Positions 5,101-60,116 of a stretch of 62,862 bases of DNA are shown here, piece after piece. Below the pieces are notes generated by a model. It was not told the origin of the DNA. It searched no databases and saw only the letters and a program-made list of their open reading frames with translations. The stretch comes from Gammaproteobacteria bacterium (lineage in GTDB: Bacteria > Pseudomonadota > Gammaproteobacteria > JAADJB01): the NCBI GenBank assembly GCA_013151035.1, contig JAADJB010000018.1, positions 1-62,862 on the forward strand, in the 5' to 3' direction. Both the position numbers and the translations under genes were made by a program. Within the stretch, counting starts at the first letter, position 1. Every line of letters starts with the position of its first letter.

Positions 5101-5181
5101 CCCCTTTTGGTCAGCTTTACTGGTAGTGAAATTATTCCCTTGAGTTCAGTGTGGCAATTTGCCGCACTTTTAGTAGTATTC

Positions 5182-7450: not shown

Positions 7451-7463
7451 ACAGGAGATAGCT

Positions 7464-9335: not shown

Positions 9336-9360
9336 TCCTCTGGATAGCAGTATTGTGATT

Positions 9361-9407
9361 ACACCCCCATTCTCATTTGTATGGGAGTGGGGGTGTTTGT
9401 TTTTTAA
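9361..9407 (+). terminator. rho-independent terminator after nosZ
   Basis: Hairpin cacccccattctcat/atgggagtgggggtg followed by gtttgtttttt. Confidence 0.5.
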
Positions 9408-9428
9408 TGGACCAGGGGCTGATAACAA

Positions 9429-12489: not shown

Positions 12490-12509
12490 GATTGTGCAGG
12501 GTTCATGAG

Positions 12510-25396: not shown

Positions 25397-27742
25397 TTAC
25401 CCGGTAAGACTGGCAAACAATAATGGCAGTTGCTCGGGTAGACGGTCGACATGTTCGATTATGGTATAGTTATTTTCACCAAAAATACGTTTCACATAAC
25501 TATCGGCATGTGGGTCCAGAGTCAGGCAGTAGGTGAGAACGCCGGTGGAATATAATTCTTCGACGGCCTTTTTGGTGTCATGGCGTAAATGCTGTGGATC
25601 CTGTTCATCAATATCGGCTGGCTCGCCATCGGTGACCAGCAGGATAAGTTTGCGTCGCTCCTGTTGCTTTAACAGGTGGTGTCCAGCATGGCGCAGCGCC
25701 GCACCCATGCGAGTGGATAAGCCTCCCGTCATGCCTGCGAGACGTGATTTAGCCTCGTCATCAAAGTGCTGATTAAAATCCTTGAAGCGATAATATTGCA
25801 CATCGTGGCGACCATCAGAGGCAAAGCCGTGTAGCGCGAAGGGATCACCAATGCCATCAATGGCAGTGGCAACCAGAGTGGCCGCTTCACGCGTTAGTTG
25901 CAGGATAGTTTTATCCGAGTCACCCACCTTTTCATTGGTGGATTCGGATAGATCGAGTAATACTACAACGGAAAGATCACGGGTTTTTAACACGTTGCGC
26001 ATGGTAATGCGTGGGTTGGGTTGTTCACCCATGCGTAGTGATATCATGGCATCTACTGCCGCATTAATATCGATCTCATCGCCGTCTTCCATACCACGTT
26101 GGCGTTGTACACCAGCCGGGGTTAGCAGGTCGATGATTTGTCGAATGCGATGTGCAATCGGTTTGTGTTCGGTGAGAATATTATCAATATCCTCCGGGTT
26201 GCCTTTAGGCAGACGACGTTCATACACTGTCGCCCAGTCCGGACGATGGAGCTGAATCTGGTAATCCCATTCCTGATAATGGAAGGGATCAGATACCGGC
26301 TCTTTGCCCCATTCAGCGTTAAAACTTTTGGCGTTATCAGTCAGGTCGTCTTCATAGAAACGCATTAAATCCGAGCAAGTCCATATCTCCTGCGCATCAT
26401 TACCAGCCAGTTCACAGTCGACTTCATGTGCCATCATCAGCGGGCTAACCTGACGGCGAACCTGGCGCTGGCTGGCCGCCATGTATTCAATTCCTGAATC
26501 CCAGTTGATATCTTCGAAGTGCCAGATAATACGATTATCATCACGATAAGGGATGCGGTAGCGTTCCAGAATACGCAAGCTGGGAACCGCTTTGCGACTA
26601 GCGAATATATTATATAACTCGACACCCATCAGCCAAGCGAAGTGGTTATCATCCTGGTTATGTTCGATACTGGCATGAAACTTTTCAACAAAGTTGTTGA
26701 GTGCTTCATCATCATTTTTTATGCTGCTATCCAGTAGTTGTAGTGCCAGATTTTCCAGCACAGGTACCGTTTCGTGTTCGACAGATTCTTTATACTCAGC
26801 CTGCATCAATGATCGCCATAGTTTTTTCAGACCGGGGAAACTATTGATAGCCTTGTATTCGATGCGTGCATCTTCCAGCAGGCCGATGAAAAACATCTGT
26901 GCCGGGCTGAGTTGTTCGGCTGACATGGAGGCACTGGTGTAGATCATGTGCGATGCCATGTGTGCGACGGTGGCACGATACAGTTCGAGACCAGCGATGT
27001 CTGCTACGTCATCGAGGGCATCGGGTACATAGAGAATGCGATCTTCGACATAGGGGCGAAAATCAGTGTAGTCAGCACCCGTTGGACGAATGAAAAAATC
27101 ACGCCCCCACAAGGCACGCAGGTAGAAGTTCAATTTGCGTTGTACTTTAACAAACAGTACGCCACGGCGTTCTTTTTCCAGCATAGCGCGGCTATCCGCT
27201 GACTCCAGGTTGAAATAGGAAGTCAGGTTATTAAAGTCGCGACGATAGGCCTGCGCACCAAAATTCGCCCAGCGCCGTAGACCGCTCAGGGTTAACTTTG
27301 ATAATAGTTCATCAATGTGGCTTAGCATGGGTCGTAAACCACGCGCAGCAGTTGACGCTAACTGATGAATCAGGGTGAGATAACCGCGTACCAGTTGGGC
27401 ATCACCGAGGCGTTTGGCTACAGTCGGCAAGCTGGAAAACATCAGGGTGATGACCTCGCCCGAGGTCATTGATGAAACCTTCATGGCAGCGGTAATGCAG
27501 TCGGGGATAATATCTTCGCCACACTCTTTGGCAACTAATGGCATTTCTTCCAGGTAGGTGATAACAAGGTCGGGGCCACGACGAAGATTACTTAGTGCAC
27601 GGGCACCGTCCATATAATCGCCTAGTCCGGCAGGTGACATGATGCGTGCAGCTTCGTGAAAAGTGCTATCAAGAATATCCCTTATCTCTGGTGCTGCCTG
27701 CTCCAGAAATTCTGCATAATCTTCAAGTTTGATAGACGACAT
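25397..27742 (-). CDS. cbbO: RuBisCO activation protein CbbO (C-terminal von Willebrand factor A domain)
   Basis: 781 aa. C-terminal VWA/MIDAS segment (VVVLLDLSESTNEK.., LVTDGEPADID). Position after cbbQ supports the call. Confidence 0.9.
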   Translation of the reverse strand: MSSIKLEDYAEFLEQAAPEIRDILDSTFHEAARIMSPAGLGDYMDGARALSNLRRGPDLVITYLEEMPLVAKECGEDIIPDCITAAMKVSSMTSGEVITLMFSSLPTVAKRLGDAQLVRGYLTLIHQLASTAARGLRPMLSHIDELLSKLTLSGLRRWANFGAQAYRRDFNNLTSYFNLESADSRAMLEKERRGVLFVKVQRKLNFYLRALWGRDFFIRPTGADYTDFRPYVEDRILYVPDALDDVADIAGLELYRATVAHMASHMIYTSASMSAEQLSPAQMFFIGLLEDARIEYKAINSFPGLKKLWRSLMQAEYKESVEHETVPVLENLALQLLDSSIKNDDEALNNFVEKFHASIEHNQDDNHFAWLMGVELYNIFASRKAVPSLRILERYRIPYRDDNRIIWHFEDINWDSGIEYMAASQRQVRRQVSPLMMAHEVDCELAGNDAQEIWTCSDLMRFYEDDLTDNAKSFNAEWGKEPVSDPFHYQEWDYQIQLHRPDWATVYERRLPKGNPEDIDNILTEHKPIAHRIRQIIDLLTPAGVQRQRGMEDGDEIDINAAVDAMISLRMGEQPNPRITMRNVLKTRDLSVVVLLDLSESTNEKVGDSDKTILQLTREAATLVATAIDGIGDPFALHGFASDGRHDVQYYRFKDFNQHFDDEAKSRLAGMTGGLSTRMGAALRHAGHHLLKQQERRKLILLVTDGEPADIDEQDPQHLRHDTKKAVEELYSTGVLTYCLTLDPHADSYVKRIFGENNYTIIEHVDRLPEQLPLLFASLTG

Positions 27743-27772
27743 AGCGGTATACCCTATTGGGTGGTTTGTTTT

Positions 27773-28588
27773 TTAGCCCAGGAAGGTCTGTACAGCAGCA
27801 TTCAGGGTGTCGCGCATATCAGGATCATCCGTTAATGGCGTTACCATGGTAATACTACAGGCGGCCTCGGCATCAACACCTTTGTTGATTAGCTGTCCAG
27901 CATAAACCAACAGACGGGTGGAGATACCTTCATCCAGACCGTGACCTTTCAGGTTACGGGCACGGTGTGCGATCTGTACCAGTTTTTCTGCAATGTCTTT
28001 GTCCACGCCAGATTCTTTGCATACAATCGCGACTTCCAGTTCGGTTTCCGGGTAATCAAAATCCAGCCCACCAAAACGTTGTTTGGTGGATTGTTTGAGA
28101 TCTTTCATTAAACTCTGATAACCGGGGTTATAAGAAATTACCAGCTGAAAATCCGGGTGCGCTTTGATCAGTTCACCTTTTTTGTCCAGCGGTAAAGAGC
28201 GGCGATGGTCGGTTAGTGGATGGATGACAACGGTGGTGTCCTGACGTGCTTCTACTACTTCGTCAAGGTAACAGATGGCACCGATACGTGCAGCCATGGT
28301 CAGTGGGCCATCCTGCCATTTGGTGCCGTCTTTATCGAGCAGAAAACGTCCCACTAAATCGGATGCGGTCATATCTTCATTACAGGCGACGGTTATCAAT
28401 GGACGTTGTAGTTTCCATGCCATGTATTCGACAAAGCGGGATTTACCACAGCCAGTGGGGCCTTTCAACATCATTGGCATACGTACATCGTAGGCGGCCT
28501 GGTAGAGTTCTATCTCTTTACCAATGGCTTCGTAGTAAGGTTCATCCTTGATGATGTACTGTTCTGGATCTACTCTTGTATCAGTCAT
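27773..28588 (-). CDS. cbbQ: RuBisCO activase CbbQ (MoxR-type AAA+ ATPase)
   Basis: Walker A GPTGCGKS. About 270 aa with high similarity to the CbbQ/NirQ/NorQ family. Confidence 0.95.
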
Positions 28589-28618
28589 AGTTGCACCTGC
28601 TTACACTTGTGTTTGAGT

Positions 28619-28931
28619 TTATTCGTCTTCGTCATTGGTTTCGCATTCGCCTGACCAGCCTGCGGCTTTTGCCTTTTGTCTGGCCAATGCATAAATTCTT
28701 TGGTGACGCTGTGCTAATGGATCGGGTAACTGGCTGACCAAACAGCCGTGCTTATCCCACTCGGTATTCACTTTTTGCAACAAAGCGTCAATCCCGGCCA
28801 GGTTCCAGCCTTCACAAGTTTCGTTTTCTTCGATGAGGCCAAACATCCAGCCATCACGGATGATCTTGCCAATACTGGTCATGCCACCATTGATTTCGTT
28901 ATCAATGCCGATATATTTATCTGGTTTGCTC
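28619..28931 (-). CDS. small hypothetical protein inside the cbbLS-QO operon
   Basis: Start taken at MSKPDKYIG. The longer listed ORF runs into MITE copy D. No recognised motif; acidic C-terminal tail. Confidence 0.45.
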
Positions 28932-28966
28932 ATGATTATTTCACCTGTGAAATTATCTGGTAAGTT

Positions 28967-29038
28967 CGAGGCATGAATCACGCTTCTCTGATAGAGAAAC
29001 GCAATCCCTGTCTCTTGAGTTAACGGGGCAGCGATTGT
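28967..29038. repeat. MITE-like element, copy D (internally deleted derivative)
   Basis: Retains the outer arms ggtaagttcgag...ctcttgagttaacggggcag. The inner region is collapsed. Confidence 0.7.
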
Positions 29039-29062
29039 GAAACTCAGGGGTGATATGTGCCG

Positions 29063-29410
29063 TTACACAGTTTTTCCACGATATATAACCATCGACGCGC
29101 CCGCTGATTGAGCGAAGTTGTCAAAACCCAGCAGACGAACGTGGTTGTCTGGATGAGCGGTATGACAAGCTTCAACCTCTTTCAGGATTGCATCAACATC
29201 GGTTTCACCAAACATGGGCAGTTTCCACATATACCAGTAATGGCCATTAGCATTCTCTGGTTCGGTGTGTTCGATGCCTGGGTTCCAGCCCTTGCTGACG
29301 ATGTATTCGATCTGCTGACGCGTCTGCTCAGCTGTCATCGGTGGCAGATATGAGAATGTTTCAAACTTGCGGCTTGAGGTATTACTCAAACTTGATTCAT
29401 AATCTTGCAT
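29063..29410 (-). CDS. cbbS: RuBisCO small subunit, form IA
   Basis: 115 aa. ..[31 protein letters not shown]... Confidence 0.95.
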
Positions 29411-29449
29411 TTTTATTGCTCCAGATAGAGTTAACTATTTTGTTGTTAG

Positions 29450-29484
29450 TCAGGTCGGGAACCTGATCCTGGTTCCCGACCTGA
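29450..29484 (-). other. perfect 14-bp-stem hairpin in the cbbL-cbbS intergenic region
   Basis: tcaggtcgggaacc tgatcctg ggttcccgacctga. Confidence 0.6.
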
Positions 29485-29495
29485 CAATTAAAAAA

Positions 29496-30914
29496 TTACT
29501 TGTGAGATACGTCCAGTTTGTCAACAGTATCAAATTCAAACTTGATCTCTTTCCATGTTTCCATTGCTGCGGCCAGTTCAGGGCTATGTTTTGCTGCTGC
29601 TGTCAGGATGTCTTTACCTTCTTTCTCAAGCTCACGTCCCGTGTTGCGTGCTTCTACACAGGCTTCAACCGCGACACGGTTAGCCGCAGCACCCGCTGCA
29701 TTACCCCAGGGGTGACCTAATGTGCCGCCACCAAACTGCAGTACGGAATCATCACCAAAGATGTTAACCAGTGCCGGCATGTGCCATACATGGATACCAC
29801 CAGAGGCAACCGGCAGTACGCCTGGCATCGCGCCCCAATCCTGGTCGAAGAAGATACCGCGTGAACGATCTTCTTTGATGAATGAATCGCGCATGAGGTC
29901 GATCCAGCCCAGTGTTGCTTCACGGTCGCCTTCTAACTTACCAACAACCGTACCTGAGTGCAGATGGTCACCACCGGACAGACGTAAGATCTTGGCTAAT
30001 ACGCGGAAGTGAATACCGTGGTGCGGGTTGCGATCGAGTACCGCATGCATAGCACGGTGAATGTGTAACAACATACCGTTGTTCTGACACCATTGTGCTA
30101 ACTGTGTATTCGCAGACCAGCCGCCGGTGATGTAATCATGCATGATGATCGGTGCGCCGATTTCTTTCGCGTATTCAGCACGTCTCATCATTTCATCAGA
30201 GGTTGCGGCAGTTACATTTAAGTAGTGACCTTTACGCTCACCGGTTTCGGCTTCGGCTTTGTGAATCGCTTCCATTACGAAATCGAAACGGGCACGCCAG
30301 CGCATGAAGGGTTGTGAGTTAACATTCTCATCATCCTTGGTGAAATCAAGACCGCCACGCAGACCTTCATAACAGGCACGACCATAGTTTTTAGCCGACA
30401 GACCCAGTTTAGGTTTAATCGTACAACCCAACATTGGACGACCATATTTATTCAGGATGTCACGTTCTAACTGGATACCCTGTGGTGGCCCATTACAAGT
30501 CATAACATAAGCGATGGGGAAACGGATATCTTCCAAACGCAGTGCGCGTAGTGCCTTAAAGCCGAATACGTTACCAACCAGAGAGGTCATTACATTAACA
30601 ACAGAGCCTTCTTCGAACAGGTCAATCGGGTAGGCGATAAAGGTGTAGAAACAGGTATCATCACCTGGCACGTCTTCAATTGCGTAAGCGCGACCTTTAT
30701 AATAATCCAGATCAGTCAGTAGATCGGTCCATACCGTAGTCCAGGTACCAGTTGATGATTCTGCTGCAACGGCAGCGGCAACTTCTTCACGAGGGACACC
30801 ATCTTGTGGTGTAACCTTAAAACAGGCCAGGATATCCGTGTCTTTCGGGGTGTAGTCCGGCATCCAGTAAGTTTCGCGGTATGCTTTTACTCCCGCGTCA
30901 TAGGTTTTAGCCAT
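29496..30914 (-). CDS. cbbL: RuBisCO large subunit, form I
   Basis: 472 aa. [23 protein letters not shown].. and active-site [11 protein letters not shown]. Confidence 0.97.
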
Positions 30915-30946
30915 TATGTTCTCCAGTGATCAATAAATGAGTTATG

Positions 30947-30962
30947 GCGCGGTAGTTACCGC
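30947..30962. promoter_or_regulatory. palindrome CGCGGTA-GT-TACCGCG in the cbbL/cbbR divergent promoter region; candidate CbbR operator
   Basis: Perfect 7-2-7 inverted repeat between the divergent starts. Confidence 0.3.
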
Positions 30963-31036
30963 GTGCTAGACATTATGCTAAAACAGGGGTATAAATAATA
31001 ATCAATAGTTTCTATTTTATATATAGGGTTTTATCT

Positions 31037-31999
31037 ATGGTGTATTCAACAGCTAAAAACCTTATTCGCCATGTATCCCTGCGCCAGATGCAGATCTTTG
31101 AGGCTGTAGTGCGTCTTAAAGGCTACACCCGTGCGGCTGAGGAGTTGCATCTATCTCAACCGACGGTATCCATGCAGGTTAAAAAACTGAGTGAGACCAT
31201 TGGCTATCCCTTGCTGGAGAAGGTGGCTAATCATCTTCATACCACGGCTGTCGGTGATGAGGTTTATGCCTCGGCCCAGAGTATCCTTGGCAGTATGGTG
31301 GCATTGGGTGAATCAACCGCTGAACTGGAAGGTGTGGTTAAAGGGCCATTGCGCATTGCGGTTATTACCACTGCCAAGTATTTTATGCCGCACTTGCTGG
31401 GGGCTTTTATTGCACAACATCCTGAGGTAAAGCCCATGTTGAAGGTAACAAATCGTTCTCGGGTGCTTGAACGTCTGAAGTCTAATGAGGATGATTTATT
31501 AATAATGGGACAGGTTCCCGTTGACCTGGCGGTAGAGGCTTACCCCTTTATTGATAATGAGTTAGTGGTTGTTGCCAGTCCTCATCACCCGCTCACACAA
31601 AAGACATCTATTTCACTTGAACAGTTGAGTGAAGAACGCTTTCTGGTGCGTGAAACGGGTTCTGGGACACGTTTAGCAATAGATCGCCTGTTTGCCGAAC
31701 AGGGTTTGAAGGTGCAGCCTTACATGGAACTGGGTAGCAGTGAAGCCATTAAACAAGCTGTTATGGCGGGTCTTGGAATATCAGTTTTATCCAGACATAA
31801 CCTGCGCCTGGAGTTGGCGGGTGAGCATATTGCGATACTGGATGTAGAAGGTTTTCCATTGTTCTATCGCTGGTATGCGGTGCACCTGAAAGGTAAAAAA
31901 TTATCGCTGGTCGCACGCACTTTTCTGGATTTCTTGTTGCAGCAGGGGAAAGATATGTTGCAACTCACTCCAGAGGGACAAATAAAAAAAATGGGTTGA
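31037..31999 (+). CDS. cbbR: LysR-family transcriptional regulator CbbR
   Basis: HTH ..LRQMQIFEAVVRLKGYTRAAEELHLSQPTVSMQVKKL... Divergent from cbbL. Confidence 0.85.
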   Translation: MVYSTAKNLIRHVSLRQMQIFEAVVRLKGYTRAAEELHLSQPTVSMQVKKLSETIGYPLLEKVANHLHTTAVGDEVYASAQSILGSMVALGESTAELEGVVKGPLRIAVITTAKYFMPHLLGAFIAQHPEVKPMLKVTNRSRVLERLKSNEDDLLIMGQVPVDLAVEAYPFIDNELVVVASPHHPLTQKTSISLEQLSEERFLVRETGSGTRLAIDRLFAEQGLKVQPYMELGSSEAIKQAVMAGLGISVLSRHNLRLELAGEHIAILDVEGFPLFYRWYAVHLKGKKLSLVARTFLDFLLQQGKDMLQLTPEGQIKKMG

Positions 32000-33310: not shown

Positions 33311-34669
33311 CTACCGTGGTTTCTTTATCATCGCTTGAATCATAACGATCAGGAATAACAGGCCGCCGATGATTGCAATTAAACCACCCAGCCCCATCAT
33401 GGCCATACCGGCTATTTCGGGTAGTTGATCCAGGCCTTGTGCAGCACCGGCGGTCTTGCGTTGCACGCCGTAACCACCCGACCAGGCAAGCCCGAGGATA
33501 TGCATCAGTTGACCACCGCCATAGACGTAGGGTTGTATGCGCGCCAGTTTGGTATCGGGTGCGCTGAAGCCCAGTTTGGGTAATAACAGGTAGCCGAGTC
33601 CCATGAAGGCGAGGGTGATGCCTACGATAGAGCCATGATAGTGGGCGGGGATAACGACATTGATACCGTGGATCATAAAGGCGAGAACACCGCCGGTGGC
33701 AAATAACAGAACGGAGCAGATGAGGGCGTTTCTAATCGGACGCTGTGCACCGCTGGCCTTGTCTGCACGCAGTAAATAGTAAGCAATGATCAGACCAAGT
33801 GGCAGGCTGGTCAGTCCGCCCCAACGCATGAGTTCGGTGTAATTGATGCGGTGTTCCAGGCTATAGGTCTCACTGCCGAGTGAGATCGGGATGGCAATAA
33901 AGGCAGGTAGCAGACACAGTGCCAGTAATAAACGGGTTGTCTTTGGCGCGATGTTTAACGGGACTCCACTGCCTTGACTGATCCATAACCAGGCCACCAG
34001 CATCATCAGGCTGTGGGTGAATTGCAGCACATGGCCGCTTCCCCAGAACAGGTATTCAAAATAGGTTTTGCCGATCAGGTCGCTAGGCAGGGTGAGGTAT
34101 GAGTAAATGAAGATCAGTAATGCGATGAGGGTGGTCAGTGATGCACTGCGGATGCCAAATTGCAGGGCTTGAGAGGCGGTATAGGTTGTGCTACGCGGTG
34201 TCGTTGTGTGCAATAAAACGGGTATCAGTTGTAGTGCAATGCCGCTGATAAATAGACCTAGGCCAAGTAGAAACAGGGGTTGTTGCAGGATCGGGATATA
34301 GTTATTGAGTAGAGGTTGTGCTTCGCCAGTAAACGGCGCGATGATAATGGCGCTGGTACCGAGGATCGCCAGGCTTAGAGCTACCTTTTCTAATGTGGGT
34401 GCATATTGTGCCTGTTGTATACTCCATAGCAGGGCGGCAAAGGACAGGAACCAGATCAATACCGAGAGATCAACATGAACAATCAGTGCGGTATGAAAAA
34501 AATCAGTCCAGGGGATGATGTCCTGTATCCCTGGGGTACGGGAAAGCACCAGCAATAAGGAAAACAGACCCGCTGCAACCAGGGCGACCAGTCCCAGGTT
34601 AAGCCAGATAATGGGTCGTTTTTGCTGTGCCGGGGATAGCTCGGGCAGGGTATAGTCGTTTGGGTTCAT
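33311..34669 (-). CDS. polytopic membrane protein (~12 TM) with heme-copper-oxidase subunit-I-like motifs and an incomplete binuclear-site His set
   Basis: LFWGSGH (HCO helix-VI W-x3-H pattern), PAHYHGS (H-x-H as in HFHYV), and only one His where the HH pair is expected. Confidence 0.5.
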   Translation of the reverse strand: MNPNDYTLPELSPAQQKRPIIWLNLGLVALVAAGLFSLLLVLSRTPGIQDIIPWTDFFHTALIVHVDLSVLIWFLSFAALLWSIQQAQYAPTLEKVALSLAILGTSAIIIAPFTGEAQPLLNNYIPILQQPLFLLGLGLFISGIALQLIPVLLHTTTPRSTTYTASQALQFGIRSASLTTLIALLIFIYSYLTLPSDLIGKTYFEYLFWGSGHVLQFTHSLMMLVAWLWISQGSGVPLNIAPKTTRLLLALCLLPAFIAIPISLGSETYSLEHRINYTELMRWGGLTSLPLGLIIAYYLLRADKASGAQRPIRNALICSVLLFATGGVLAFMIHGINVVIPAHYHGSIVGITLAFMGLGYLLLPKLGFSAPDTKLARIQPYVYGGGQLMHILGLAWSGGYGVQRKTAGAAQGLDQLPEIAGMAMMGLGGLIAIIGGLLFLIVMIQAMIKKPR

Positions 34670-35587: not shown

Positions 35588-35910
35588 GGCAATGGCTCAC
35601 TCCGTTTAATATCTATAATAAGTTGTATTTTAGCACTCTAACAGTATGAGTGCCAAGTGGGTATTAAGTTCCTGTTAATGTGGGAATACCTTTTCCTCTG
35701 GATTGTTGTGCCTGTTGCGCACCAAATTAGTACAATTTATATGCGGGTTTGAATTTGCTGCCTTCTTATAGTGCGGGCCTGCTAGCAGAGAGTTTCATAC
35801 CCTTTTGATTAATAAGCTTTTATGCTTATGGCATAGATTGTGCTAGAGGTTTTAAGGATAAGTAAAAAAATACATTTCTATCTTCTTGAAATCAGGGTTA
35901 AGGGTGCGTC

Positions 35911-37251
35911 ATGAGTAACAGCTTGCTACGGGGTTTTGCCTCGATTATTTTGCTAGCCATTTTTAATATTATTTTTCTTCGGGCAGTCGTTGCGGCTGAT
36001 GATGTCCCCAGACCTATTGTCCACTACCCTGAACGTGGTGTGGCGATGACAGAAAAATGGAAGGTGGTAAAGGATGGCTATAGCAATCCTAAGAAATACA
36101 TTCCGCCTATTATCGAGGGCGCAGGTAAGGATTGCGTCAAGTGTCACAAGGTGTTGACACCTGTTGCGGTGAAGGATTGGGAAGAAAGCAGGCATTATGA
36201 GAAGGGTGTCGGCTGCGAAAGCTGTCATAACGATCACAGCAACCTTATTATGCCGACCCCTGATACCTGTGGAACCTGTCATGCCTCCGAGACTATGCAG
36301 CATCGTGCAGGTAAACATTCTATCGCCTGGAGTATCAAGGTAGCATCGGGTGGTAAAGGTGGCGGTGCGGGTCGTTTCCTTGCCCAGTATGAAGAAATGA
36401 AAGAGGCCAGTTGTGGTGGTTGCCACAGTGTCGAAGATAAGTGTGATTCCTGTCATTCTCGTCACAAGTTTAATCCTAAAGAGGCACTTGAGCCGGCTGC
36501 CTGTGGCACTTGTCATATGGGGCCGGATCATGCGCAGCTGGATTATTATGAATCGTCAAAACACGGTGTCATTTTTGATATAGAAGGTAAGGGGTTTGAA
36601 GAGGGTGGTCGCGCGCCGACTTGTGTCACCTGCCACATGAAGGCCGGTAATCATGATGTCAGTCAGGGTCTGACCTTAGGTGGTGCCTCACAGGGCAAGT
36701 TTATCGGTAAGAAGGATACCGGTGCGGGATACAGCAAAAACCCTAATGGTATCTTGATGAATGAGATTACCGTAGGAACATTCAAACGTGAACGTGCCAA
36801 GATGGTCTCTATCTGTATGAACTGTCATTCACAGCGTTTTGCCGAACATAAGCTATCGGTTGCGGATGGTATCAAAATTGCCAGTGATGCTGTTGCGGGT
36901 GAGGCTATCAAAGTGATTAAATCACTTCATAGTGATGGCTTGTTGAATCCGATGCCGGAGGATAGACCAGAGAATCCATTCGTGGGTAAGAAATTGATGC
37001 TGACCGGGCATCAGCTTTATGAGCAGACATCCGGTATCGAGGCGCTGTTTTTTGAGTTGTATAAGTTTGATCTAGTCCATGCCTGGAAAGGAGCCTATCA
37101 CTTTAGCCCGGATTGGACGCACTGGTATGGTAATGCGCCAATGAAACTGAAGCTGTCCAGGATAAAGAACGAGGCAAACCAGTTGCGGCGCCTGGATAAG
37201 CTGGAAAAAGAGCTGGGTATTGAAGCAGAAAAGGTCGATTTCGGCGAGTAA
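35911..37251 (+). CDS. HAO-family octahaem cytochrome c (hydroxylamine-oxidoreductase-like, reductive type: no cross-link Tyr)
   Basis: Signal peptide and eight CxxCH motifs. Segments PTPDTCGTCH, KCDSCHSRHKF, PAACGTCHMGPDH..SKHG, APTCVTCHM and CMNCHSQRFA closely resemble Nitrosomonas HAO as recalled. Confidence 0.85.
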   Translation: MSNSLLRGFASIILLAIFNIIFLRAVVAADDVPRPIVHYPERGVAMTEKWKVVKDGYSNPKKYIPPIIEGAGKDCVKCHKVLTPVAVKDWEESRHYEKGVGCESCHNDHSNLIMPTPDTCGTCHASETMQHRAGKHSIAWSIKVASGGKGGGAGRFLAQYEEMKEASCGGCHSVEDKCDSCHSRHKFNPKEALEPAACGTCHMGPDHAQLDYYESSKHGVIFDIEGKGFEEGGRAPTCVTCHMKAGNHDVSQGLTLGGASQGKFIGKKDTGAGYSKNPNGILMNEITVGTFKRERAKMVSICMNCHSQRFAEHKLSVADGIKIASDAVAGEAIKVIKSLHSDGLLNPMPEDRPENPFVGKKLMLTGHQLYEQTSGIEALFFELYKFDLVHAWKGAYHFSPDWTHWYGNAPMKLKLSRIKNEANQLRRLDKLEKELGIEAEKVDFGE

Positions 37252-37257: not shown

Positions 37258-37899
37258 ATGAGACTTATCGTAATGTTTTTATTCCTGTTGACCGCCAGCC
37301 TGACAGTGCAGGCTAAGGGGCTGCCGCGTGCGGAGAGTTGTGGTAGTTGCCATGTATCAAACTTTGATACCTGGGAGTCCTCTGCGCATGCTGACTCTAT
37401 TAGTCGCCAGGGCTTTCGCAGTTGTCTGGAAGACTATCTGGAAAAAGAAAGGACGAACAGTGGTGCCTATTGTTTTGACTGCCATGCGCCTGGTGAGGTG
37501 ATTAGTGGTGATGTCTTTGCGGCCACTAATGATGTCATGAAAGGTAAGTTGTATCGTGATGGTGTGACCTGTGTGGCTTGTCATAGTGTGGAGTCTATTC
37601 AAGACGGCAAGGCGATTTATGATCCGGGTGGCATTAACGGTTATCACAGTGTGAAGGATCTCAAGTCTGTTGATAGAGAGGCATTATGTTTGACTTGTCA
37701 TAGTCGCTATCAATCCACTCGCCCGGTGACGGAAGAAACGGCTCCTGGATTTTTTGAGAATCTTTATGCGGGTTTAAGTGGTGTGGTGAGCACAAAAAAC
37801 AAAACTATAACCGATCATCGCTTCGTTGAGTCGGTGGTAGAGAATGAAGGGCACTGGGAATGTAAATCGGGATCGCTGTTAGAAGAGGGACATCAATAA
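37258..37899 (+). CDS. tetrahaem cytochrome c, c554-like
   Basis: Signal peptide and four CxxCH motifs. N-terminal CGSCH..W.SSAHA resembles c554 (CSSCH..W..TAHA). About 210 aa. Confidence 0.7.
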   Translation: MRLIVMFLFLLTASLTVQAKGLPRAESCGSCHVSNFDTWESSAHADSISRQGFRSCLEDYLEKERTNSGAYCFDCHAPGEVISGDVFAATNDVMKGKLYRDGVTCVACHSVESIQDGKAIYDPGGINGYHSVKDLKSVDREALCLTCHSRYQSTRPVTEETAPGFFENLYAGLSGVVSTKNKTITDHRFVESVVENEGHWECKSGSLLEEGHQ

Positions 37900-39545
37900 T
37901 GTTACGTGGTATCTTTATACTACTGACCAGTCTGTGCTTATCAGTGGCATTCCTTACGACGGCACAAGCCGCAGGTTATGCTGCCAGTGCAAACATTGAT
38001 AGTGCCAAAAAAGAGGGCGCAGCCGACTGTAAGTCGTGTCACGAAGAAACTAAAAAACCTGAAAGATATGAGTCGGCCAGATCCTGGCTAAAGAGTCGTC
38101 ATGCGGCGGAGGGTGTAAGCTGTGTTGATTGTCATCTGAAACAGGATGTTAAGGGTCAGGACTTTTACACAGCGGTTACTACAGAGAGTCGGCAAGAGGC
38201 ACATGCCGCCATGGTGGCTGACCCTGATAATAAGGAAAACAAGGCCTACTTTATAGAGGTCTGTGGTAGTTGTCATCAAGATAGATTAACGGAATTTAAT
38301 GCCAGCGTTCATGGCGTAGCAAACAGCAAGAGTGAGACCACAGCGGTGAGTTGTGTGGATTGCCATGACCCTCATTTGGCACCCCTGGTGACCAGCAAGG
38401 CATCGAAGATCTACCGGGGTAATGATACCAATACCTGTGGTCGATGCCATAAGGATGCCCTCGGCTCCTACATGAAGACCTTCCACGGCAAGCAATTTCA
38501 TTTAGGGAATACCCTGGCTCCGACCTGTATCTATTGTCATCGAGGTCATGAAGTACCCACCGATTCCCCTGCCTCGTTTATTCATGCCGATAATATTGGT
38601 GGTCTATGTGCCGGTTGTCATGGTGATGCCATTAATGCCGGTGCCGGTGCTGATGCCCTGCTGATACAAAATTTAAGCGGTGATTCCACGCGTAAGGTGA
38701 CTCATTTCCGTGATCCGGTAACGGCCGGGCCTTTCTCGGTTGCCTCCATGATTGATTCGACCTATCTGGCGATGATTATTGGTATTGTCGGGTTTTTCAC
38801 CTTGCTTTCCACACGCGATTATATGAAAAAGACCCAGGCGGGTGCCTCCAGTAGTGAGGATGATAATAAACCGAGTGTGAAACGCTTCTCTATCTCCTGG
38901 CGTTTACAGCATTTCTTCTGGGCTTTGTCATTTATTCTTCTGGCAGCAACGGGTCTCTCGCTTAAATTCCCTGAGTCAGTGCTTTCTGAGGCAGTGGTGT
39001 GGATGTCAGGTGGTGAAGAACTGCGTTCTATTATTCACCGCATTGCCGCGATTGTCTTTATGCTGTTGGCGGCTATTCATCTATTGCCCTATCTGCTCAA
39101 GTTGAAACCACCGGGTAAGATATTCCTTAGCAAAAAAGATTTTATTGATGCCTTTTTGCACACTAGTTATCTGTTTGGCAGAGCCGATAAAATGCCGTTG
39201 ATGTACCGTTATGCCTGGTATCAGAAGGTGGAATACTGGGCGACAGTGATCGGTGGTTTCATTGTTATATCAACCGGGCTATTGATGTGGAATTTCTCTC
39301 CACTGGCAAGCTGGATTCCAGTTGAATTTGTTTTTTATGCGCAGTTGATACACGGTTGGGAGGCAATCCTGGCGGTGCTGGTCATCTTTGTGCAGCATTT
39401 CTATCATGTGTTCCTGAATCCTGATGTGTTCCCGATGGATACCTCATGGTTAACCGGCAAGACCAAGTACAAGGTGATGAAGCATGATCATCCGCTTGAA
39501 TTGATGGAGATAGAATCAAAAAAGGAGAAAGCCGATGAGGATTAA
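37899..39545 (+). CDS. heptahaem cytochrome c fused to a C-terminal FdnI/HyaC-type dihaem cytochrome b membrane domain (CbcL-like quinone-reactive subunit)
   Basis: Seven CxxCH motifs in the periplasmic part. Five TM helices follow, with RLQHFFW, AAIHLL, LIHGWEA and VQHFYH His patterns typical of Ni_hydr_CYTB/FdnI cytochrome b. Confidence 0.8.
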   Translation: MLRGIFILLTSLCLSVAFLTTAQAAGYAASANIDSAKKEGAADCKSCHEETKKPERYESARSWLKSRHAAEGVSCVDCHLKQDVKGQDFYTAVTTESRQEAHAAMVADPDNKENKAYFIEVCGSCHQDRLTEFNASVHGVANSKSETTAVSCVDCHDPHLAPLVTSKASKIYRGNDTNTCGRCHKDALGSYMKTFHGKQFHLGNTLAPTCIYCHRGHEVPTDSPASFIHADNIGGLCAGCHGDAINAGAGADALLIQNLSGDSTRKVTHFRDPVTAGPFSVASMIDSTYLAMIIGIVGFFTLLSTRDYMKKTQAGASSSEDDNKPSVKRFSISWRLQHFFWALSFILLAATGLSLKFPESVLSEAVVWMSGGEELRSIIHRIAAIVFMLLAAIHLLPYLLKLKPPGKIFLSKKDFIDAFLHTSYLFGRADKMPLMYRYAWYQKVEYWATVIGGFIVISTGLLMWNFSPLASWIPVEFVFYAQLIHGWEAILAVLVIFVQHFYHVFLNPDVFPMDTSWLTGKTKYKVMKHDHPLELMEIESKKEKADED

Positions 39546-40074
39546 TCGGTTGTCTCTATTGATGTTGGTGATGGGGCTTGCTTCGTTACTGTTGGCACCT
39601 GCTCAGGCGAGTGATGAAAGCTGTATTAGCTGCCATTTACACAGCGAATTGAGTCAGGACTTTGCTGCGCCATTACATGATATCAAAACGCTGGCCGGAT
39701 TCCATGGCTATGTATTCAAACAAAGAGGGTCTGATGCCGATTGTCAGGTCTGCCATGAATCAGGTCAGACCAAGGGCGAACTCCCATCGGCACAGGTCTG
39801 CCTGACGTGTCACACCCGAGGCAAGTCGACACAGGGTGATCCTGATACGGTCTTTCATGCCGAAGAGAATCACTGGCCGATGGAAAAGGTGTCGTGTACC
39901 ACCTGCCATAAAGGTCACGTTGCCGGTAACAGGATAATTAAATTTATGACGGGTGATGCGATCAATGCCTGTCAGCAATGTCACAAGAAAAGTTTTAAGA
40001 CAATATCCGGTTTGGATAAAAGCGGTGAGCCGGCAACAGTGAATGAACCGGACAACCGTTATGGGCAAAATTAA
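39535..40074 (+). CDS. pentahaem cytochrome c, NrfB-like
   Basis: Signal peptide and five CxxCH motifs in about 179 aa. Confidence 0.7.
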   Translation: MRINRLSLLMLVMGLASLLLAPAQASDESCISCHLHSELSQDFAAPLHDIKTLAGFHGYVFKQRGSDADCQVCHESGQTKGELPSAQVCLTCHTRGKSTQGDPDTVFHAEENHWPMEKVSCTTCHKGHVAGNRIIKFMTGDAINACQQCHKKSFKTISGLDKSGEPATVNEPDNRYGQN

Positions 40075-40092
40075 GACAAGAGGTTATTGATA

Positions 40093-41394
40093 ATGAGTGC
40101 TACTGAGAATATGGCTGTTTTTGCAGTATCGCTGGATACTGTGTGGGTGATTATTGCGGCTGTTCTGGTCTTTATGATGAATGCCGGGTTTGGCATGTTG
40201 GAGGCGGGGCTTTGTCGGGCAAAGAATACGGTGAACATCTTTGCCAAGAACATTGTTATCTTTGCCATTGCCGGTTTGAGTTTCTGGCTGGTGGGCTTTG
40301 GTTTGATGTTTGGTGATGGTAATTCACTGATGGGGATGACCGGCTGGATGTTATCCGGTGTCGATAATAGCCCGGCGGTGGGTGACTATTATTATGGTGA
40401 TTATACTTCTCTTAGTTGGGCGGCCTTACCCCTGTATGCCAAGGTTCTATTTCAACTGATGTTTGTTGCTGCCTCAGCGCATATTGTCTCCGGTGCGGTA
40501 ACCGAGCGCATCAAGTTTTTCTCATTTATTGCCTTCTCTATAGTATTGGTTGCCATTATTTATCCGGTTGTTGGTCACTGGGCATGGGGTGGTGGTTGGT
40601 TGTCTGATCTGGGTTTTATTGATTTTGCCGGTAGTTCGGTGGTGCATTCTGTTGGTGGCTGGGCGGCACTAACAGGAACGATTATTCTGGGTGCGCGGGC
40701 AGGTAAATTTACCCGTGATGGCAGGGTGTCACCTATTCCGGGGCATAACCTGGCGATGGCGGCATTGGGCATGTTCCTGTTGTGGTTCGGTTGGTTTGGT
40801 TTTAATGCGGGCAGTGCAATGACAGCATCAAGTGGCGAGCTGATTGCCACAGTGGCACTCAACACAACGCTGGCGGCGGCAGCGGGTGTAATCAGTGCCT
40901 TGATTGCTGCCGAGGTGCTTATTGGTAAACCGGATATGAGTATGATTCTTAATGGTGCATTGGGTGGCCTGGTGGCGATTACAGCGGGTTGTGCCGAGGT
41001 TAGCACCAGTGGTGCCGTCATTATCGGACTTGTCTCCGGTGTGTTGGTGGTCTACTTTATTATGTTACTCGATAGACGGCGTATTGATGATCCTGTTGGT
41101 GCGGTGCCGGTGCATCTTGTCAACGGTATCTGGGGCACATTGGCTGTTGGTTTATTTAGCCTGAGTGAAGGCTTCTTTTATACCGGGGAGTTGTCATTGT
41201 TGACGACTCAGTTGATCGGGGTTGCTGCGATTGCGGTCTTTGCCGGGGGTGGTAGTTATCTTGTCTGGCACCTGGTCAGTCTGCTTTTGGGTGGCTTGCG
41301 TGTGAGTCAGGAAGAAGAACACATTGGTCTTGATATCAGTGAGCATGGTATGGAGGCCTATCCTAGTAGTTCAGGCCCCAGGGCTCTTTATTAA
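40093..41394 (+). CDS. amt: ammonium transporter (Amt family)
   Basis: 11 TM helices. Amt motifs ..DFAGSSVVHSVGGWAAL.. and twin-His region ..GLFS.. Confidence 0.9.
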   Translation: MSATENMAVFAVSLDTVWVIIAAVLVFMMNAGFGMLEAGLCRAKNTVNIFAKNIVIFAIAGLSFWLVGFGLMFGDGNSLMGMTGWMLSGVDNSPAVGDYYYGDYTSLSWAALPLYAKVLFQLMFVAASAHIVSGAVTERIKFFSFIAFSIVLVAIIYPVVGHWAWGGGWLSDLGFIDFAGSSVVHSVGGWAALTGTIILGARAGKFTRDGRVSPIPGHNLAMAALGMFLLWFGWFGFNAGSAMTASSGELIATVALNTTLAAAAGVISALIAAEVLIGKPDMSMILNGALGGLVAITAGCAEVSTSGAVIIGLVSGVLVVYFIMLLDRRRIDDPVGAVPVHLVNGIWGTLAVGLFSLSEGFFYTGELSLLTTQLIGVAAIAVFAGGGSYLVWHLVSLLLGGLRVSQEEEHIGLDISEHGMEAYPSSSGPRALY

Positions 41395-41417: not shown

Positions 41418-42077
41418 ATGGGCTGGTTAATATTCTTTTTTTGCTGGATCTTGTTTCTTTGGCTTTATCACCATAGTGAGAAGAATAAGCAACTTCGTGC
41501 ACAGTCAATGCAAACGGAGAAGCATGTCGATTATGGTTCGGTAAAACGTGACTTTGATGAAAGCATGAAGTCATTTAATGATAGCGAGGGCTTCAAGGCG
41601 CGTTTGGCACATATTGATCGCGCCATTGGTCATCTTGAACAAATGGAAGAGATGCTGCCGGGGAAGGATTCAGCCTCCCAGCTATCTGAATTACTGTCAT
41701 TGAAACGGGGGCTCACGCATTCCGGTATCAAGGGACGGTTTCAGGAGTCTATGCGTAAGGCGCGCGAGACCACGAGTACCATTGCCAAGGTTAATCATGC
41801 CACCTCTGCACAGGCGATCCTGAGCGAAGGACTGGATATGGGTATTGATAAAGAGTTGTTGAGCGAAGAGATCGAAGAGGCGAATGACTTTATCAACCAG
41901 TTGCAATATGACGAGTATCTCGCCAAGGCAAGCAAGGAAGAGGCAAAGGGTAATACGAAAGGTGCCATTGATCAGTATCAGGTGGCACTGTACTTCCTGA
42001 AGATGGCGCATATAGGCAGTGAAAAGCAGGATGCGCTGGTGAATGAAATCGAGAGTAAGCTACAGAGTCTTTCCTGA
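41418..42077 (+). CDS. hypothetical protein with one N-terminal TM anchor and a helical soluble domain
   Basis: MGWLIFFFCWILFLWLY hydrophobic anchor; the rest is charged and helical. Confidence 0.45.
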   Translation: MGWLIFFFCWILFLWLYHHSEKNKQLRAQSMQTEKHVDYGSVKRDFDESMKSFNDSEGFKARLAHIDRAIGHLEQMEEMLPGKDSASQLSELLSLKRGLTHSGIKGRFQESMRKARETTSTIAKVNHATSAQAILSEGLDMGIDKELLSEEIEEANDFINQLQYDEYLAKASKEEAKGNTKGAIDQYQVALYFLKMAHIGSEKQDALVNEIESKLQSLS

Positions 42078-42147
42078 TCGGGGGCCCTGGGTGATATTTT
42101 TAAATGAAAAATAAAACAACGTATTAGTAATAAAAGTGGAGACAATC

Positions 42148-43590
42148 ATGGAAACCAATGAAACACGGGGCAAAATGAATAATTTTGGTGAGACGATGAA
42201 ACAGACCGGTCTTGCAAAGCCGACAGTATTGGGTGGTTTGTTTGCTGCCCTGTTATTTGCCGGTGCAATAGGCGGGCTGCTGGAAACCAATGAAGCGGGT
42301 ACTATTACGGTCAAACAGTCTGCGATGACGGGGGCAGTGGATATTATTTCCAAGCCGGGTTTGTTTTGTCAGTGTCTTGGTTCGGTGACAAAATATCCTG
42401 AGGCGGGTACCGTCAAGTTTGCCCAGGCCGATCAAATAAAAGGGCCTAATGGCACCATGATCGAGCGACCGGGCCGGAGTAAGGAGAAAGATCCTTCCCT
42501 ATCCAGTGAGATCGAGGTACGATTTAATGATGGTGGTCTGGGCTGGATCTCGGTGATGACAATGTTTGATCTACCAGCTGATCGAAGCAAATTAAGACTT
42601 GTTCACAAGAAGTTTCGGGATTATAACAATCTGCTTGAGATGGGTGTCAAACCGACTATTGAAGAGTCTGTAGTATTAACGGCTGCCTTGATGAATTCGG
42701 GTGAGTCGTATACCACTAAACGAGCCATCTTCTCTGAATGGGCCAAGGATCAATTGACTCAGGGTACTTATATGACAGAAGAGGTTGCTCGTTCTGATCA
42801 GGGTACATTGGGTGGTGCGATGGAAAACAATGTTGTCAGGGTTAAGGTAAAGGATGGTGCAAAACTGAGAAACGAGGACCCTCTAGCACGTTACGGGATC
42901 AAGTTTAAACAGTTCCAGATTACCAATATTCGTTATGAGGCAGAGACCGAGAGTCTTATCAAGATCAAGCGTAATGCACTGCAACAGACCATCGTAGCCA
43001 GGATCGCAGCAGAGCGTGCCAAGCAGGAACGTCTGGCGGCTGAAGAGTTTGGTAAGAAGAAGGTCAAGATTGCTGAATATGAAGGCATGGTAAAGAAGAA
43101 AAAGGCCGAGGTTGCAGCGGAAGAAGAAAAGAGTGTTGCTATCATCAATGCCGAACGTAAGTTGGCAGTGGCCAAGGTAATGAAGCAGAAGGATCTGGGT
43201 GCGGCTAATAAAAAGGTTGCGCTGGCGAAACTGGAAAAGGAAAAGGCCATTATTACTGCTGATAAGGGTGTTAAGGTTGCCAAGTTAAATGTTGATGCCG
43301 CGAAGTATAATAAGCGGGCTCAAATCCTTGAGGGTGAAGGCGTGAGTGAGCAAAGACGGCTCATCTACAAGGCTGATGGCGCGCTGGAACAGAAGCTGGA
43401 TGCCTACGTGAAGGTGATGACGGTATTGTCCAAGGAACTGGGCAAGCAGAAATGGGTGCCTGATATTGTTATGAATGGTAGTGGTAATGGTGGTGCTGAT
43501 CAGGGTAATGCGGCTGCTGGGTTTATGAACCTGTGGATGATGAAGGCAGCGAAGGATCTTGATGTTGAGCTGACGGCTAAGAAGAAGTAA
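42148..43590 (+). CDS. SPFH/band-7 domain protein, flotillin-like (YqiK-like), with a long Ala/Lys/Glu-rich coiled-coil
   Basis: N-terminal membrane segment, SPFH-like core and an EA/KA-rich repeat region. Start taken at the ATG with an upstream GGAG. Confidence 0.65.
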   Translation: METNETRGKMNNFGETMKQTGLAKPTVLGGLFAALLFAGAIGGLLETNEAGTITVKQSAMTGAVDIISKPGLFCQCLGSVTKYPEAGTVKFAQADQIKGPNGTMIERPGRSKEKDPSLSSEIEVRFNDGGLGWISVMTMFDLPADRSKLRLVHKKFRDYNNLLEMGVKPTIEESVVLTAALMNSGESYTTKRAIFSEWAKDQLTQGTYMTEEVARSDQGTLGGAMENNVVRVKVKDGAKLRNEDPLARYGIKFKQFQITNIRYEAETESLIKIKRNALQQTIVARIAAERAKQERLAAEEFGKKKVKIAEYEGMVKKKKAEVAAEEEKSVAIINAERKLAVAKVMKQKDLGAANKKVALAKLEKEKAIITADKGVKVAKLNVDAAKYNKRAQILEGEGVSEQRRLIYKADGALEQKLDAYVKVMTVLSKELGKQKWVPDIVMNGSGNGGADQGNAAAGFMNLWMMKAAKDLDVELTAKKK

Positions 43591-43615
43591 TTTTCTTTAT
43601 TACTGTTGTTAGTGA

Positions 43616-43646
43616 AGATGCCCGCATAAGCGGGCATTTTTTATTT
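43616..43646 (+). terminator. rho-independent terminator
   Basis: atgcccgc ataa gcgggcat followed by tttttt. Confidence 0.65.
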
Positions 43647-58298: not shown

Positions 58299-58617
58299 CA
58301 GGGTTATAAATATAATGATCAGTATTTGTTTAAGCTTTATGATGATCTCGCTTTAATCGTTTTATGTTGTCATGGTTCGTATAGGGAGTATAACCCACTC
58401 ATTCATCGCATGAAAATAGCCATGAAATTACCCTTGCACCAGAATGAGTGATATAAGGGTGTTCTAATGTAATAGCGCACCCGGCTTGTGCATACATCTT
58501 ATTTTTAAGGTATTAAAACCTTATTTATATTATTGTATTCAATATGTTGCGATATTGGCACAGGCATTGCATGAGGTTGGGTATATCGTGAAGACTTGAG
58601 TTTACAGGAACAAGAAG

Positions 58618-60093: not shown

Positions 60094-60116
60094 GTTGCTT
60101 AGTATATAATCAAGCA

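Follow-up and report, generated by a model that had tools for sequence, protein, structure and literature searches.

We analysed a 62,862 nt stretch of DNA, hereafter the window, which is positions 1 to 62,862 of the contig JAADJB010000018.1 of the metagenome-assembled genome (MAG) ‘Gammaproteobacteria bacterium’ (assembly GCA_013151035.1). It carries a gene for a single polypeptide in which a periplasmic domain with seven haem c motifs is joined to a cytochrome b domain of the type found in FdnI, the cytochrome b subunit of E. coli formate dehydrogenase N (Fdn-N). This fusion gene is the third of a seven-gene operon behind a sigma-54 promoter, which also encodes a hydroxylamine oxidoreductase (HAO)-like octahaem cytochrome c and an Amt-family ammonium transporter; in the public record the four cytochromes are listed as ‘hypothetical protein’ (NOX08696-08699). 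The fusion most likely wires the HAO-like enzyme to the quinone pool, because in all the orthologous loci that we compared it shares an operon with this enzyme and Amt. The parts of the fusion gene are as follows (aa, amino acids; window coordinates throughout).

37899 to 39545, + strand: fusion gene (seven-haem c / FdnI-type dihaem b), 548 aa, open reading frame (ORF) from ATG to TAA
37899 to 37973, + strand: signal peptide, aa 1-25, predicted cleavage between AQA and A, from hydropathy and sequence
37974 to 38738, + strand: periplasmic haem c domain, aa 26-280, with 7 CxxCH motifs and 7 invariant distal His
38760 to 38816, + strand: linker helix TM0, aa 288-306, running from periplasm to cytoplasm, with Leu303, from hydropathy and a histidine census
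38883 to 39542, + strand: FdnI-type cytochrome b domain, aa 329-548, with 4 transmembrane (TM) helices

All 14 cysteines of the mature fusion protein fall within the seven CxxCH motifs (Cys44, 75, 122, 152, 180, 210 and 237), and when the protein was shuffled 20,000 times no shuffle contained three or more such motifs. The seven motifs were invariant across 16 fusion orthologues, as were seven further histidines (68, 102, 138, 159, 196, 217 and 269), which would be enough for seven bis-His c haems. Hydropathy placed TM helices at residues 288-306, 339-357, 376-400, 446-466 and 480-505. The loops at residues 309-335 and 400-445 are rich in Lys and Arg and were assigned to the cytoplasm, and the loops at residues 360-375 and 466-478 contain neither and were assigned to the periplasm. 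Because of this distribution the CxxCH domain was placed in the periplasm, and the predicted topology is that which an FdnI-type bundle, with both termini cytoplasmic, requires; the extra helix at residues 288-306 leads from the haem c domain in the periplasm back into the cytoplasm. The initial annotation of this locus had described an ORF with a signal peptide, seven CxxCH motifs on the periplasmic side, five TM helices and a C-terminal domain of the PF01292 type, and this description was borne out by the sequence, the hydropathy profile and the charges of the loops.

In a profile search the C-terminal domain matched PF01292 over residues 329-507 with 56.2 bits (cut-off 30.1), and the sole sequence-level match of the fusion in the Protein Data Bank (PDB) was E. 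coli Fdn-N FdnI (E = 4.9e-6). The histidine pattern of FdnI, with single histidines on helices I and II and a pair spaced 13-14 residues apart on helix IV, is found in the fusion, whose His338, His380, His485 and His500 align with FdnI His18, His57, His155 and His169, which we take to coordinate the FdnI haems bC and bP (Jormakka et al. 2002). The four histidines of the fusion were invariant in 51 sequences and were kept in 163-165 of 165 distant fusions. The loop Y438-x3-Q442-K443 (YxxxQK, 438-443) aligns with Y109..Q113-K114 of FdnI, in a loop lining its 2-heptyl-4-hydroxyquinoline-N-oxide (HQNO)/menaquinone site (Jormakka et al. 2002), and the cytoplasmic tail is also FdnI-like, with H529-D-H531-P..EIE (HDHPLEL..EIE) in the fusion and HHP..EIE in FdnI. 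The cytochrome b domain is an FdnI-type four-helix bundle with both ends of its chain on the cytoplasmic side; of the class originally assigned to it, FdnI/HyaC-type, the first half stands and the second does not, the domain not being HyaC-like. The fusion was rejected as a formate dehydrogenase subunit, as its score against TIGR01583, the FdnI equivalog, was 54.5 bits, below the cut-off of 115.85, and no FdnG or FdnH partner (molybdopterin or FeS subunit) was found in the operon. Compared with E. coli FdnI (PDB 1KQF/1KQG chain C), the window protein has no such partners, is instead fused to a haem c domain via the extra helix and carries an additional invariant histidine, His394, and the direction of electron flow which we propose for it is the opposite.

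His394 (nt 39078-39080) lies where TM II ends on the cytoplasmic side. We made a census of membrane histidines in 165 fusions from outside the window orthogroup and found a linker histidine near the cytoplasmic end of the helix, where the window fusion has Leu303 (nt 38805-38807), in 82% of them, an equivalent of His394 in 91% and both in 74%. The pattern of the window fusion (His394 only) was seen in 17% and that of the Geobacter protein CbcL (linker histidine only) in 8%. It is possible that fusions with all six histidines, the four FdnI ligands and the two extras, hold a third b haem or switch their haem ligation.

The fusion gene is flanked by the following genes and features.

35911 to 37251, + strand: HAO-like octahaem cytochrome c, 446 aa, 8 CxxCH (PF13447, 113 bits)
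37258 to 37899, + strand: periplasmic tetrahaem cytochrome c, 213 aa, 4 CxxCH, signal peptide cleaved between VQA and K (PF13435, 40.7 bits)
39535 to 40074, + strand: periplasmic pentahaem cytochrome c, 179 aa, 5 CxxCH, signal peptide cleaved between AQA and S
40087 to 41394, + strand: Amt-family ammonium transporter (PF00909, 395 bits; TIGR00836, 412 bits)
41418 to 42077, + strand: 219-aa coiled-coil protein with an N-terminal membrane anchor (no family match above threshold)
42136 to 43590, + strand: SPFH/Band-7 domain protein, 484 aa (PF01145, 31.8 bits)
43614 to 43641, + strand: intrinsic terminator, 12-bp stem with 6 GC pairs, followed by a T-run

The start of the fusion gene overlaps the stop of the tetrahaem gene (TAATG), the pentahaem gene overlaps the end of the fusion gene by 11 nt and has its ribosome-binding site (AAGGAG) inside it, and amt begins after a 13-nt gap. 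From this arrangement the cytochrome genes are judged to be translationally coupled. The terminator is the only strong one between the sigma-54 promoter and the next gene, which is convergent.

We compared the window with the orthologous loci L001-L004, L011-L015 and L071, which together come from hydrothermal, marine-sediment and Hainich groundwater samples. The order HAO-like, tetrahaem, fusion, pentahaem, Amt, 219-aa protein and SPFH protein was found in every orthologous locus as far as the contig reaches, and the order of the first five genes was identical down to 56% fusion identity. The amt gene was directly downstream of the pentahaem gene in each locus long enough to include it, the 219-aa gene following amt was kept in most loci and missing only from L012, and the SPFH gene was likewise kept, as the last gene of the operon. 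The 219-aa and SPFH proteins may act as a membrane scaffold for the complex. In L012 (4173-5697) amt (4285-5697, + strand; 649 bits against the Amt of the window) is absent from the public gene calls, which have two minus-strand ORFs in its place. A scan of genome contigs with peptide patterns derived from the query itself, which sees close relatives only, found the fusion orthogroup mostly in gammaproteobacterial MAGs. Among approximately 70 loci of distant fusions, none had HAO-like or Amt neighbours.

The two soluble cytochromes are poorly matched by known families. The tetrahaem protein had 12 homologues in 5.8 billion proteins, and those which were checked sit in the same type of operon; the AlphaFold2 model made from these 12 sequences had a predicted local distance difference test (pLDDT) value of 37, too low for a comparison with the c554 and NrfH folds. 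It was called ‘c554-like’ at first, and of this the generic PF13435 match stands, whereas the score against NF043010 (Cyt554_Nsmonas) was 15.9 bits, far below the cut-off of 400, and a true cytochrome c554 (CycA) was therefore rejected. It also carries an invariant Cys202 and a near-invariant Cys56 outside the CxxCH motifs, which may form a disulfide. The pentahaem protein gave weak matches to NrfB and to the pentahaem subunit of alternative complex III (ACIII).

We found no NapC/NrfH-type protein in the operon: the tetrahaem and pentahaem proteins have cleavable signal peptides and sub-threshold NrfH/NapC scores, which for the tetrahaem protein were 18.6 against 24.1 for PF03264 and 25 against 134 for NrfH. 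The fusion itself reached 31 bits with PF03264, which covered profile positions 113-164 only, and fell below the cut-offs of TIGR03153 (28 against 134) and TIGR02161 (21 against 311). Since the scores were partial or sub-threshold, a quinol dehydrogenase of the NapC/NirT/NrfH/cM552 kind was rejected for both the fusion and the tetrahaem protein. The initial annotation had further proposed that the fusion couples the quinone pool to the HAO-like protein with no NapC/NrfH or cM552-type partner; this fits the coupled, invariant operon and the sub-threshold NrfH scores, with the coupling to quinone itself being what we infer.

We searched 1.84 billion cluster representatives with the fusion and obtained 3,344 matches at E ≤ 1e-3, of which 278 reached E ≤ 1e-30; many of the alignments run across the junction between the c and b domains. 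The haem counts of the recovered superfamily proteins were mostly odd (7, 9, 11, 13, 17 and 19, with 11 the mode), and among the loci which were fetched there were 51 fused ORFs and 66 split (b-only) ORFs. In the 50%-identity library the window clade had one representative (61% identity), the next relatives being 33-35% identical. Zhong and Shi have described a CbcL/MtrH/MtoC family whose members, found in 15 phyla, are 416-1034 aa long and contain 3-23 haems; most of them have six TM helices and a few have five, and the gammaproteobacterial sulfur oxidiser Sulfuricaulis is represented (PMC6295460). By its homology over both domains the window fusion is judged to belong to this CbcL/MtrH/MtoC superfamily and to form a new subfamily of a known and widespread group. 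An architecture of this kind had been thought unusual in a gammaproteobacterium; this was not upheld, as the orthogroup is mostly gammaproteobacterial and the family already includes Sulfuricaulis.

The fusion had also been ascribed the architecture of Geobacter sulfurreducens CbcL (Cbc1, GSU0274). This holds for the order of domains, which in both runs from an N-terminal periplasmic multihaem c domain through a linker helix to a dihaem b domain of the FdnI/HydC type, and for a similarity over the full length, but the fusion is not a CbcL orthologue. As a proxy standing in for the authentic GSU0274 we used P0052 (616 aa, 9 CxxCH, an extra C-terminal TM helix), judged to be CbcL-type only from short readable fragments of a garbled published alignment (PMC9129911); a screen of the recovered 9-haem proteins for V205/F525 gave no match. 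P0052 was 26% identical to the window fusion over both domains (BLASTP E = 4e-43, fusion residues 35-521), and orthology to CbcL was rejected on this identity and on the counts of haems (seven against nine) and TM helices (five against six) and the missing linker histidine. CbcL has nine bis-His haems, six TM helices and five membrane histidines, one on each of helices 1-3 and two on the fifth; its published clade is at least 57% identical, and its c domain titrates at -194 mV. In place of the C-terminal TM helix of CbcL the window fusion has an FdnI-like cytoplasmic tail, instead of the linker histidine it has His394 in TM II, and whereas CbcL belongs to a constitutive context of extracellular electron transfer (EET), the window fusion lies in an HAO-like/Amt operon. 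CbcL has been modelled as oxidising quinol on the cytoplasmic (N) side, with electrons flowing outwards at the expense of the membrane potential (bioRxiv 10.1101/2022.08.31.506072).

Similar parts are found in split form in Geobacter CbcBA (Cbc5), which we compared by description only: it consists of a seven-haem CbcA with a C-terminal TM anchor and a dihaem b protein, CbcB, in two polypeptides rather than one, and it is sigma-54 dependent, the type of promoter found before the window operon. CbcB is reported to have no sequence homology to CbcL, and one of its haem ligands comes from the CbcA helix, whereas the linker helix of the window fusion has no histidine.

The direction in which the fusion would carry electrons depends on the HAO-like enzyme. 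Its best PDB matches were 6t5e and 4n4j, both anammox HOX enzymes (E of approximately 1e-48), and it was 69-89% identical among orthologues, compared with 56-78% for the fusion. An invariant His404 (THWYGNAPM) occupies the register at which NeHAO has its cross-link Tyr467 (TYTEGWGPM), and the T, G and PM residues around it align; within the wider motif SPDW(T/S)HWYGNAPMK the core HWYGNAPMK is invariant. In kustc0458, which is not cross-linked, Trp is found at this register (SWWWGQAPM), and a missing cross-link Tyr is an accepted mark of reductive HAOs (PMC3701875, PMC8940962). This suggests an HAO-like protein with no canonical cross-link Tyr that would work reductively. The ‘orange octahaem cytochrome’ of Guaymas Beggiatoaceae (BOGUAY_0691, 511 aa) was considered as a described counterpart and dropped, as it was called transmembrane and no cytochrome b partner was mentioned.

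The next-closest HAO-like clade was found in locus L093 (1-4027, GCA_020724035.1), where the HAO-like protein is 56% identical and fused to a monohaem cytochrome c domain, and its gene directly follows split cytochrome b genes, one of which is fused to cytochrome c domains. An unannotated 151-aa ORF there may be a Rieske subunit, giving the locus a likeness to the Rieske/cytochrome b (R/b) complexes of anammox bacteria, and a divergent, split multihaem and PF01292 pair lies nearby. In L095 (441-2579) a relative which is 59% identical lies behind a gene for a 250-aa 4Fe-4S (NrfC-like) protein. Related HAO-like genes thus appear, from their neighbourhoods, to pair with interchangeable quinol-dehydrogenase modules. 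We favour the reductive direction because the Rieske/cytochrome b and NrfC-like modules of these loci typically oxidise quinol, because His404 replaces Tyr as Trp does in kustc0458 and because the linkage to Amt matches the published model of a reverse hydroxylamine-ubiquinone redox module (HURM), in which the reduced nitrogen product enters the cell via AmtB (PMC3701875). The stronger conservation of the HAO-like protein, the sigma-54 promoter in all loci with NtrC-like sites in three of them, the like promoter layout before narK, and a host with nosZ and RuBisCO but no amo gene in the window also speak for this direction.

The DNA upstream of the HAO-like gene carries putative regulatory elements, and a similar set lies before narK elsewhere in the window.

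35718 to 35734, + strand: upstream activator site 1, NtrC-like, CGCACCAAATTAGTACA, 3 mismatches to TGCACC-N5-GGTGCA
35759 to 35775, + strand: upstream activator site 2, TGCCTTCTTATAGTGCG, a degenerate copy in register with sites in L004 and L001
35829 to 35844, + strand: sigma-54 (-24/-12) promoter, TGGCATAGATTGTGCT, 67 nt before the ATG of the HAO-like gene
58618 to 60093: narK, behind a sigma-54 promoter

Each of the six loci with upstream DNA (the window, L001, L004, L014, L011 and L012, with L004 and L014 being near-identical) has the pattern TGGCA-N7-TGCW ahead of the HAO-like gene, where we estimate a chance expectation of about 0.002 per 300-nt region per strand. The three gammaproteobacterial loci share blocks of conserved upstream sequence, two of which resemble NtrC sites. 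The L004 sites TGCACCAGGCTGGCTCA, aligned with window site 1, and TGCATCTTTATGGTGCA, aligned with site 2, have two mismatches each to TGCACCA-N3-TGGTGCA, and the L001 site TGCACCCTCATAGTGCA, in register with window site 2, has two mismatches to the NtrC consensus. Site 1 of the window, which also aligns with a better site in L001, is not significant alone and draws its support from conservation across loci; both window sites are weaker than their counterparts. The regulatory argument rests on position and on this conservation, since within the window the sigma-54 pattern is marginally enriched (5 matches against 1.9 expected) and the NtrC-like pattern is not enriched. The narK promoter has the same layout, with a near-consensus sigma-54 element TGGCACAGGCATTGCA (58556-58571) and two NtrC-like sites, whose first positions are near 58436 and at 58476. 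Behind the same promoter narK is followed by a gene for a fused PP2C phosphatase / Ser-Thr kinase (60117-61817; whole region 58436-61817). By the resemblance of these motifs the HAO-like operon would belong to the nitrogen-starvation (NtrC) regulon.

Taken together, we read the fusion as the quinone-reactive membrane subunit of a seven-gene sigma-54 operon built around an HAO-like enzyme, which would run as a reverse HURM under nitrogen limitation, and we give this reading about an even chance of being right. The FdnI-type bundle would bind two b haems, bP through His380 and His485 and bC through His338 and His500, with the quinone site adjoining the cytoplasmic-side haem bC as in FdnI, and the seven bis-His c haems would form a periplasmic wire beyond the linker helix. 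Quinol would be oxidised at the cytoplasmic face and its electrons would cross the membrane via bC and then bP, passing from the c haems to the HAO-like enzyme with or without the two soluble cytochromes (tetrahaem and pentahaem) as intermediates. The enzyme would then reduce nitrite, hydroxylamine or NO to ammonium, which the co-encoded Amt would import. Outward flow from a site on the N side would spend membrane potential, which would help to push electrons from (ubi)quinol to low-potential haems. The CbcL-like b-c fusion would in this way take the place of a NapC/NrfH/cM552 quinol dehydrogenase and would be expressed under nitrogen limitation. We speculate that the FdnI-like domain trimerises like Fdn-N and docks on a trimeric HAO-like enzyme.

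The proposed system resembles the HURM of ammonia oxidisers (HAO-c554-cM552) in combining an octahaem enzyme of the HAO family, a tetrahaem partner and a quinone-reactive membrane cytochrome, and it resembles the reverse HURM published for Nautilia and Campylobacter (epsilon-Hao with the NapC/NrfH-type CycB), whose enzyme has no cross-link Tyr and has been proposed to feed Amt-type transporters (PMC3701875). In both of these the membrane partner is a single-helix NapC/NrfH tetrahaem cytochrome with a site on the periplasmic (P) side, whereas the window has a 5-TM b-c fusion with a presumed quinone site on the N side and adds the pentahaem cytochrome, Amt and the SPFH protein. In anammox R/b complexes and in L093 the HAO-like enzyme is likewise genetically tied to a membrane quinol-oxidising module, but the R/b-type operon of L093 has a Rieske/cytochrome b module and an HAO-like protein fused to a monohaem cytochrome c, and no FdnI-type protein.

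A number of points weigh against this reading. FdnI itself runs the opposite way, reducing quinone. In the HAO-like protein an invariant Tyr406 lies two residues past His404, and in the HMMER alignment it falls opposite the Tyr of TYGNG in KsHOX, which we take to be the cross-link Tyr of that enzyme; the closest solved relatives are oxidative HOX enzymes, and the replacement of Tyr by His was judged by alignment only. Control by NtrC is suggested by motif resemblance, with 3-5 mismatches in the window sites, fewer matches with up to 3 mismatches in the window than expected (14 against 25.8) and no NtrC-like sites resolved in L011 or L012. The narK gene of the host suggests a conventional cytoplasmic route of assimilation, and all orthologues come from uncultured MAGs.

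Those points which concern direction are also the case for a forward HURM, in which the HAO-like enzyme would oxidise hydroxylamine or another reduced nitrogen compound and electrons would pass from the c haems through bP and bC to quinone, with uptake of protons from the cytoplasmic face. This would be an Fdn-N-type half redox loop in which oxidation is electrogenic, unlike with cM552. The cytochrome b domain is closest to a protein which runs in this direction, a cross-link through Tyr406, which adjoins the usual position, is conceivable, CbcL/MtoC relatives are regarded as bidirectional and the MtoC-type members have been proposed as quinone reductases (PMC6295460). We nevertheless consider it unlikely, as His rather than Tyr occupies the NeHAO Tyr467 register between well-aligned anchors, no amo gene was seen in the window and no other source of hydroxylamine is visible, the sister HAO-like genes go with modules which typically oxidise quinol, and the sigma-54/NtrC-like promoter and co-transcribed Amt suit the acquisition of nitrogen better than its loss. 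The same wiring from quinol to the HAO-like enzyme could instead serve respiratory nitrite ammonification, or the scavenging of NO or hydroxylamine during denitrification, with Amt being merely a neighbouring Ntr gene. The host appears to be a denitrifier (nosRZD), epsilon-type Hao and Nrf systems serve both respiration and detoxification (PMC3701875, PMC6896113), and kustc0458-type HAOs lacking the Tyr make NO from nitrite according to work cited in PMC8940962, as far as it is reported there. However, the promoter is of the sigma-54 type and no control of the FNR/DNR or NsrR type was identified, amt is always present and translationally close, and a quinol site on the N side would make for poor energy-conserving respiration, and we think this dissimilatory or protective use quite improbable. 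Finally, the fusion could link quinones to minerals or partners outside the cell, as is described for CbcL, MtrH and MtoC, and pass electrons between the two, with the HAO-like protein and small cytochromes as no more than periplasmic wires. Each characterised or discussed member of the superfamily has been linked to EET, and minerals of Fe and S are plentiful in the vent and groundwater habitats. The context argues against such a role via PpcA-type cytochromes, because the HAO-like/Amt operon has no porin-cytochrome genes (no gene of the operon matched an outer-membrane cytochrome or porin family in family searches). The stronger conservation of the HAO-like protein than of the fusion is also enzyme-like rather than wire-like, and EET offers no rationale for the Amt linkage or the Ntr-type promoter; we regard it as a very remote prospect.

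What is new at this locus is the context, namely an HAO-like enzyme, an FdnI-type b-c fusion and Amt together behind a sigma-54 promoter. In searches of the literature for CbcL with hydroxylamine or HAO, and for HAO with cytochrome b or Amt, the coverage of which was incomplete, we found no description of such an operon. Enzymes of the HAO family are central to the nitrogen cycle, and their link to quinone decides both the conservation of energy and the direction of the reaction. This link has so far been attributed to NapC/NrfH/cM552 tetrahaem cytochromes or to Rieske/cytochrome b and has been left open in anammox bacteria; the window operon, with its CbcL-type b-c fusion, would be a third solution, and a genetically clean one. 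Until now the CbcL/MtrH/MtoC family has been discussed only for EET, and its functional range would be widened if our reading is true. There would also be an additional candidate route from nitrite or hydroxylamine to ammonium which standard annotation misses. We put forward tentatively, and with rather more doubt than confidence, that the operon is a new module for periplasmic, assimilatory ammonification of nitrite or hydroxylamine, assisted by the proton-motive force, with Amt and an SPFH scaffold and within a sigma-54/NtrC regulon, in chemolithoautotrophic Gammaproteobacteria and relatives; its hosts are uncultured and were sampled from vents, sediments and groundwater. The operon also offers a compact seven-gene system for asking whether FdnI-type modules can run as quinol oxidases assisted by the membrane potential.

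The remainder of the window contains a nosR-nosZ-nosD.. cluster (5360-13055) and a form I RuBisCO cluster (25397-31999), the latter with cbbL, cbbQ, a CbbO-like gene with a VWA domain and a divergent LysR regulator. From these genes the host looks like a denitrifying chemolithoautotroph. Upstream of the operon, at 33311-34669 on the minus strand, between a Fic gene and a gene for an RpoH-like sigma factor, lies a gene for a 452-aa protein with approximately 12 TM helices, which matched PF00115 (haem-copper oxidase subunit I) weakly at 46 bits and had no NCBIfam match; it is not kept beside the operon in other loci. At 51727-55809 a 1360-aa protein with HTH_37 at its N terminus and a weak match to AAA is annotated as an ‘XRE family transcriptional regulator’, for which class it is unusually large.

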